Positions 37,603-37,715 of a stretch of DNA of 64,000 bases are shown here, in pieces. The notes below the pieces were generated by a model. That model had not been told where the DNA came from, searched no databases, and saw only the letters and a list, made by a program, of their open reading frames with translations. The position numbers were made by a program, and so were the translations under genes. The DNA comes from Escherichia coli (GTDB taxonomy: Bacteria; Pseudomonadota; Gammaproteobacteria; Enterobacterales; Enterobacteriaceae): assembly GCF_030384885.1 (NCBI RefSeq), contig NZ_CP128613.1; one strand, given 5' to 3'. How positions within the stretch are numbered: position 1 is the stretch's first letter; each line of letters begins with the position of its first letter.

Positions 37603-37715
37603 CGAGTTGCAGGAAGTTGGTGACGCAGCGAATCCCCAGGAGCGTGCACGAGTACGTGACTGGGGTGAGCGAGGAAAACCAACGCACATGCAGCTTGAAG
37701 TATGACGGGTATTAC
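37603..37715. repeat. ERIC/IRU (enterobacterial repetitive intergenic consensus) element between wcaD and wcaE
   Basis: GCGAATCCCCAGGAGCGTGCACGAGTACGTGACTGGGGTGAGCG...CTTGAAGTATGACGGGTAT matches both halves of the ERIC consensus (GTGAATCCCCAGGAGC / GTGACTGGGGTGAGCG) as recalled. Confidence 0.75.

Follow-up and report, generated by a model that had tools for sequence, protein, structure and literature searches.

ERICs, also known as IRU or RU-1 elements, were described by Sharples & Lloyd (1990), Hulton et al. (1991) and Wilson & Sharp (2006), and are regarded as non-autonomous miniature inverted-repeat transposable elements (MITEs) of Enterobacteriaceae. Duplication of a TA target is a published signature of the family (PMC2759123, PMC3184786), and overlaps of ERICs with the 3′ ends of genes have already been documented (PMC2759123). 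In Yersinia, co-transcribed ERICs are reported to create an RNase E site and destabilize the upstream mRNA in one orientation (reviewed in PMC3184786 and PMC3049150).

The window analyzed here is a 64,000-nt stretch of Escherichia coli DNA (contig NZ_CP128613.1), in which we confirmed a full-length 127-nt ERIC (IRU/RU-1) on the + strand at 37585-37711, where the colanic acid genes wcaD and wcaE meet. The element and its sequence landmarks are the following:

37585 to 37711, + strand: full-length ERIC (IRU/RU-1), terminal TA included; the Wilson & Sharp consensus orientation corresponds to the operon sense
37585 to 37586, no strand: left TA target dinucleotide; its exact limit can be shifted by 1-2 nt, TAT also being duplicated
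37628 to 37643, + strand: left arm of the ERIC core inverted repeat, GCGAATCCCCAGGAGC, with one mismatch to the core GTGAATCCCCAGGAGC
37656 to 37671, + strand: right arm of the ERIC core inverted repeat, GTGACTGGGGTGAGCG, an exact match
37710 to 37711, no strand: right TA target dinucleotide; relative to the consensus GGGTATA, this end lacks 2 nt

Global end-to-end alignment of 37585-37711 with the published 127-nt E. coli ERIC consensus (Delihas 2007, PMC2759123 Table 1a; the reverse complement of that of Wilson & Sharp 2006) revealed 102/127 identities (80%). The alignment score was 171, compared with 28.9 +/- 7.6 and a maximum of 63 across 1000 shuffles, and identity to the Salmonella copy (S. 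enterica SeRU-1) was 98/127 (77%). Each core arm, GCGAATCCCCAGGAGC or GTGACTGGGGTGAGCG, has one good match in the 64-kb window, and GTGACTGGGGTGAGCG corresponds to the 3′ part of the ERIC2 primer.

A sensitive BLAST search with the 127-nt query located 43,595 ERIC-like places in 5425 of 5426 complete E. coli genomes, with a median of 9 copies per genome and 12 in the window's strain. These matches typically cover 96-100% of the query at ~80% identity and lie in unannotated DNA. Paralogues 3′ of ilvN and at ybhJ-ybhI, yeiL-psuT, cusF-cusC and yeiS-preT show no internal gaps when aligned to the wcaD copy; among the paralogues, identity to it reaches only ~81%, so that no source copy could be pinpointed. 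Across the E. coli genomes, no 28-nt exact word is common to the wcaD copy and any other ERIC copy, which argues, at the level of sequence, that the wcaD element is old and diverged and that no recent source for it can be identified.

The element agrees with an ERIC in its length, its similarity to the consensus, its palindrome and its TA ends, and also in belonging to a multi-copy family and being polymorphic at its site. The location is only partly intergenic, because 16 nt of the element lie inside the wcaD ORF.

Comparison with the junctions of K-12 DH10B, F344 and GN06489 revealed 125 extra bases in the window (37585-37709), with TA on each side. The empty site of K-12 and F344 reads ...GCGTTAAA-TATTACGAGGTAA..ATG, and the ancestral junction is AAATATTACGAGGTAA. 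Aligned at the insertion point, the empty AAA-TA-TTACGAGG corresponds to the occupied AAA-TA-TACACCC...GACGGG-TA-TTACGAGG, which leaves 123 nt between the two TA copies. The left end carries a 2-nt AC insertion relative to other ERICs (TATAC[AC]CC). Independent support for these boundaries comes from a sub-threshold match to Rfam RF02818 (V_AS5), which delimits 37586-37709 (+).

These results uphold the initial annotation in its identification of an ERIC with both core arms recognizable, the full-length match being far from weak, and revise it in two respects. Its coordinates, 37603-37715, give way to approximately 37585-37711, a start 18 nt earlier, on the evidence of the empty-site alignment and the sub-threshold Rfam match. 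Its placement of the element between wcaD and wcaE is right as to the flanking genes, but the element overlaps the wcaD 3′ end and supplies the stop codon of that gene. The coding features concerned are:

36380 to 37600, + strand: wcaD, colanic acid polymerase, 406 aa (TIGR04010, 870.8 bits; RefSeq annotation)
37598 to 37600, + strand: wcaD stop codon TAA, derived from the ERIC left arm (translation compared with K-12)
37716 to 37722, + strand: GAGGTAA, in which GAGG is the Shine-Dalgarno of wcaE and TAA is what remains of the stop at which wcaD ended ancestrally, now out of frame with any translated ORF
37727 to 38473, + strand: wcaE, colanic acid glycosyltransferase (TIGR04009, 515.4 bits; RefSeq annotation)

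Both proteins were assigned by NCBIfam equivalog models. The last 16 nt of wcaD, stop codon included, are ERIC sequence, and WcaD ends in ...KALNIHPK* in the window versus ...KALNITR* in K-12, the last two codons having been replaced. Variation of the WcaD C-terminus between strains is here the product of a repeat insertion and not of point mutation.

The TAA that follows GAGG terminates wcaD in Citrobacter and in the empty alleles of E. coli, 4-10 nt before the wcaE ATG, the gap being 4 nt in F344 and 10 nt in K-12. At the occupied junction, a 126-nt untranslated and strongly structured spacer replaces this stop/Shine-Dalgarno overlap, and the Shine-Dalgarno and ATG of wcaE are intact. Small changes close to the wcaE start were also observed: K-12 DH10B carries a 6-bp TAAGAA tandem duplication between the wcaD stop and the wcaE ATG (fetched segment 599-608) that is absent in F344, and some occupied alleles have a 1-nt deletion (TAA-AACATG) in the spacer between Shine-Dalgarno and ATG, so that this spacing differs among strains. 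A 41-aa TTG ORF within the element (37617-37742) was set aside, ORFs being a by-product of the ERIC repeat (PMC2759123).

The genes surrounding the insertion, wza-wzb-wzc-wcaABCDEF-gmd-fcl-gmm-wcaI-cpsBG-wcaJ-wzxC-wcaKLM, all lie on the + strand with short gaps, and their RefSeq positions agree with the ORFs of the window. Stretches of 701 bp and 181 bp of the window are 100% identical to E. coli 2013C-4282 (NZ_CP027579.1). The cluster is preceded by its leader:

29762 to 29800, + strand: JUMPstart upstream of wza, in the 5′ leader of the ERIC-containing operon (Rfam RF01707, 57.3 bits)

JUMPstart recruits RfaH anti-termination. Transcription of the element would be expected from its same-strand location within wza-wcaM, 3′ of the JUMPstart leader.

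Several other repeats and structured RNAs were found in the window. The wzc-wcaA gap (33733-33860) contains a REP/PU-like palindrome, GTCGGATGCGATGCTGACGCATCTTATCCGACCTAC, at 33744-33780 and folds at -37.7 kcal/mol (z = -3.2); with this palindrome and the ERIC, the operon of the window's strain has two different palindromic repeat families. Between cpsB and cpsG, also within the colanic acid operon, lies an Rfam algC RNA motif (RF02929, 73.9 bits, 44342-44391). A second JUMPstart (53993-54031, 59.2 bits) follows galF and precedes an O-antigen cluster, in which the annotation places wzx and wzy in the O17/O44/O73/O77/O106 family.

Three tandem Sib antitoxin RNA / Ibs toxin type I modules occupy 12963-13761 between mdtA and yegL, with the Sib RNAs on the - strand (Rfam SIB_RNA, 137-139 bits each) and the toxin ORFs on the + strand at 12978-13034, 13306-13362 and 13634-13690. 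K-12 has two modules at this site (sibA and sibB), so that copy number seems to be strain-variable. In the window's strain, the annotation lists pphC (14564-15325), the gene for a PP2C-family phosphatase, as a pseudogene that carries an internal stop.

To return to the insertion itself, the junction region finds a match in 4793 E. coli genomes. Of these, 723 contain ERIC sequence together with both junctions, with the full element in 94 (~2%) and a shorter form in the remaining ~629 (~13%); all seven sampled shorter forms are an 80-bp derivative with a 45-bp central deletion. Empty sites account for ~4070 genomes (~85%), including K-12, B REL606 and O157:H7 strains, and the E. coli type strain ATCC 11775 carries the short form. 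The initial annotation had suggested a survey of presence and absence across E. coli and had treated the ERIC as standard operon architecture; the survey identifies it instead as a minority allele. The portion lost from the short form is:

37619 to 37663, + strand: 45-bp segment missing from the 80-bp allele, with GGTGA repeats at 37619-37623 and 37664-37668 (alignments)

The shortened allele is ~7 times commoner than the full one, an excess for which hitch-hiking, or selection acting against the complete hairpin, could be responsible. At the deletion junction, two sampled short alleles are not identical (GAAGT-T-GGTGAG versus GAAGT-G-GGTGAG), mirroring a T/G polymorphism in the full alleles; the 45-bp deletion may thus have occurred twice, or once and been followed by recombination.

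The same junctions and the same orientation, including the extra AC on the left and the missing TA on the right, were found in 7/7 sampled occupied alleles. Such identical and idiosyncratic junctions point to a single insertion of the ERIC at wcaD. A cross-species WcaE scan revealed, among the matches listed, at least 18 other Enterobacteriaceae species with a wcaD-wcaE gap of 5-32 nt and no ERIC. The outgroups in these matches belong to Citrobacter, Enterobacter, Kosakonia, Lelliottia, Yokenella, Pseudocitrobacter and Mangrovibacter; the matches listed include no other Escherichia, no Salmonella and no Klebsiella species. In five Citrobacter loci, the sequence runs ...AATATCGCGAGGTAA, as it does at the empty site of E. 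coli. Since the ERIC is absent in the 18 outgroup species, the empty site is, by this comparison, ancestral and the insertion derived.

Full alleles occur on two flank haplotypes that are 3.5-4% apart, and one full allele differs from an empty allele at 1/425 bases of the left flank and 7/429 of the right. This combination of full alleles on diverged flanks with near-identical flanks on full and empty alleles argues that the polymorphism has been shuffled by recombination, as would be expected from its position adjoining the O-antigen locus. Precise excision could also produce near-identical flanks on occupied and empty alleles, and appears less probable.

The transcribed strand of the element is predicted to fold into a long hairpin, as the initial annotation had proposed:

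37590 to 37710, + strand: predicted mRNA hairpin, 40 base pairs in 5 helices (folding)

For the element alone, the predicted energy is -57.7 kcal/mol (z = -6.9) on the + strand versus -35.2 kcal/mol (z = -2.3) on the - strand; for 37595-37730, it is -51.8 kcal/mol (z = -5.7) versus -27.1 kcal/mol (z = -0.56) on the complementary strand. The two strands of the ERIC consensus fold at -61.8 and -45.2 kcal/mol, and the Salmonella copy shows the same asymmetry. On these predictions, the strand asymmetry is a family trait arising from G-U pairs and not a peculiarity of the wcaD copy. The 80-bp short allele folds at -25.3 kcal/mol.

Across 10 ERIC sequences, standard pairs were kept in 95.3% of cells, compared with 27-39% when partners were slid, and 6 hairpin pairs were changed on both sides, all six involving wcaD copies; the structure underlying these figures was derived from the window sequence, and a DNA-level palindrome would yield the same pattern. 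Owing to its bulges, the ERIC palindrome was missed by a repeat search that extended matches without gaps, and folding recovered it.

The wcaD stop codon lies inside the 5′ arm of the predicted hairpin. When a ribosome was placed at this stop (37598-37600) in a constrained fold, the outer stem opened and the predicted energy rose from -60.5 to -45.0 kcal/mol. Pairing of the freed 3′ arm near the wcaE start in the same constrained fold was dismissed as too weak.

Collectively, the locus is very probably best explained as an ERIC copy that was inserted once in wcaD, was spread by recombination and mostly shortened, and is passively co-transcribed and nearly neutral. The insertion would have taken place at the TA in the third-from-last wcaD codon, in an E. 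coli lineage, after which recombination would have moved the ERIC between wca haplotypes and, in most carriers, a 45-bp deletion between GGTGA repeats would have shortened it. The element encodes nothing. Within the wza-wcaM operon, it would be a passive passenger of transcription, in the orientation with the more stable RNA hairpin, and its insertion is likely to have been nearly neutral.

Some consequences for the mRNA may nevertheless follow. The insertion would have abolished the translational coupling of wcaE to wcaD, and a ribosome terminating at 37598-37600 would have to open the outer helix, transiently baring the 3′ arm. De Gregorio, in 2005, is said to have distinguished ERICs overlapping stop codons as a class in which ribosomes hinder folding and unmask the RNase E site. 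The hairpin could serve as an endonuclease target (for RNase E or III) or as a barrier to 3′-exonucleases, and either role might modestly shift the relative abundance of the upstream versus downstream operon segments. Our best estimate, made from the sequence, is that the effect on the wcaD:wcaE expression ratio would be at most modest. As to direction, the initial annotation had suggested altered stability of the downstream wcaE-wcaM segment; in the Yersinia precedent, it is the upstream segment, not the downstream one, that is destabilized (PMC3184786, PMC3049150).

A selected regulatory role for the wcaD ERIC is possible but unsupported. It would make the element a regulatory module whose three states (none, 80 bp and 127 bp) set the polymerase:glycosyltransferase ratio or segmental mRNA half-lives. 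The differences from other ERICs do keep the hairpin, with the 6 pairs changed on both sides, and the sense RNA is far more stable than the antisense; yet palindrome upkeep and strand asymmetry belong to the whole ERIC family, the consensus itself folding at -61.8 versus -45.2 kcal/mol. The polymorphism is old enough for its flanks to differ by 3.5-4%, but hitch-hiking beside the recombination-prone O-antigen locus explains the allele frequencies equally well. Two further points speak for such a role: the wcaD stop lies in the 5′ arm, where the outer stem would give way to a ribosome that terminates (-60.5 to -45.0 kcal/mol), and ERICs are reported to have orientation-dependent effects on co-transcribed mRNA in Yersinia (PMC3184786, PMC3049150). 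Against it, 85% of strains and all 18 listed outgroup species do without an ERIC here. We regard this explanation as improbable. The chance is slimmer still that a three-state series (a coupled 4-10 nt gap and hairpins of 80 nt and 127 nt, the longer one having the stop in its 5′ arm) is kept by selection, tuning the WcaD:downstream-glycosyltransferase ratio or the half-lives of the operon halves. Were it so, a domesticated MITE would act as a natural expression-tuning cassette in a capsule-like operon.

A very stable stem-loop within a long operon might also terminate or attenuate transcription and thereby render the expression of wcaE-wcaM polar, and some BIME repeats do attenuate transcription (PMC3049150). 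However, no T-run follows the stem: the sequence runs ...GUAUGACGGGUAUUACGAGG, with GTATTACGAGG after the stem. A promoter/terminator scan of 37300-38000 found neither a promoter-like nor a terminator-like site on the + strand. The operon has a JUMPstart leader, a signal for RfaH anti-termination, and the downstream genes, essential for colanic acid synthesis, are intact. With no + strand site in or near the element, the terminator reading, which we consider very unlikely, was rejected together with that of an internal promoter.

The Rfam match raises the alternative that the locus is no passive repeat but the gene of a separate small or antisense RNA comparable to the AS5 RNA of Vibrio. RF02818 (V_AS5) aligns over its full model (1-129) to 37586-37709 (+) with E = 0.001, but at 25.8 bits it falls far short of the gathering score of 96, and membership was rejected in favor of kinship at best. 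At gathering thresholds, Rfam reported no family at the element in a search of the whole window, V_AS5 being the only match there at permissive E-values. On the + strand there is neither an upstream promoter-like site nor a terminator after the element, and the simplest account of the resemblance would be that V_AS5 is itself an ERIC-type repeat of Vibrio; an independent RNA at this site is highly improbable. V_AS5 ("Vibrio RNA AS5", an antisense RNA) shares the ERIC core (GAAU.CC...GUGACUGGGGUG.GCGA) and the outer stems. ERIC/RU-1 is reported in V. cholerae (PMC2759123). By its sequence, this Rfam family seems to be a repeat of the ERIC type in Vibrio and not a gene dedicated to an antisense RNA.

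The reading that we prefer, a nearly neutral ERIC insertion, makes the wcaD copy a routine addition to a well-known repeat family, real and not surprising, with little importance beyond annotation. Full-text searches that combined ERIC with wcaD or wcaE returned nothing relevant, so that this insertion appears not to have been described in the literature that can be searched. The RefSeq annotation has no repeat feature at the wcaD-wcaE site. Genome annotation and the interpretation of ERIC-PCR should note that this site is strain-variable. E. coli offers here a natural, isogenic-like series of empty, short and full hairpin states at one operon junction. Such a series suits questions on ERIC hairpins, translational coupling and segmental mRNA decay, which have so far been addressed only in Yersinia.

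Compared with known systems, the wcaD copy most closely resembles the ERIC/IRU/RU-1 elements of E. coli and Salmonella, with which it shares the core inverted repeat, the long imperfect palindrome, the terminal TA and the dispersed multi-copy distribution. It is more diverged than the other sampled E. coli ERICs, which are ~95% alike among themselves. Unlike the usual ERIC, it has 2 nt more at its left end and 2 nt fewer at its right end, overlaps coding sequence and supplies a stop codon. It is also found in only ~15% of strains, mostly as the 45-bp deletion derivative.

The Yersinia ERICs (De Gregorio et al. 2005, as reviewed in PMC3184786 and PMC3049150) likewise lie within operons, at or over a stop codon, and form an RNA hairpin. 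They are the only experimental model, one in which an RNase E site is present and decay of the upstream segment depends on orientation. They belong to a different species and to another sequence subfamily than the wcaD copy. REP/BIME and the Neisseria Correia elements (NEMIS) are likewise small, co-transcribed palindromes that act on mRNA stability or processing (PMC3184786, PMC3049150). Their sequence families are unrelated to ERIC; REP is ~35 nt long and not a MITE, and Correia elements are RNase III substrates that can carry promoters.

With respect to its effect on the coding sequence, the wcaD copy parallels the RU-1 fusions at gene 3′ ends (Delihas 2007, PMC2759123: the ECA3499 amidase, YPO3245 and others), in which insertion removes the stop and the ORF reads on to an ERIC-borne stop. 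Those fusions have the opposite element orientation, with a long open frame that adds ~35 aa (PMC2759123), whereas the orientation of the wcaD copy has early stops and the only change is TR to HPK. With respect to operon position, its counterpart is the ERIC of E. coli at cusC-cusF, which is likewise full-length and lies between two genes of one operon. In strain E2863 (fetched segment 395-524, cusCFBA operon), this copy is transcribed in the opposite element orientation, which would make it a natural comparison case for orientation effects.
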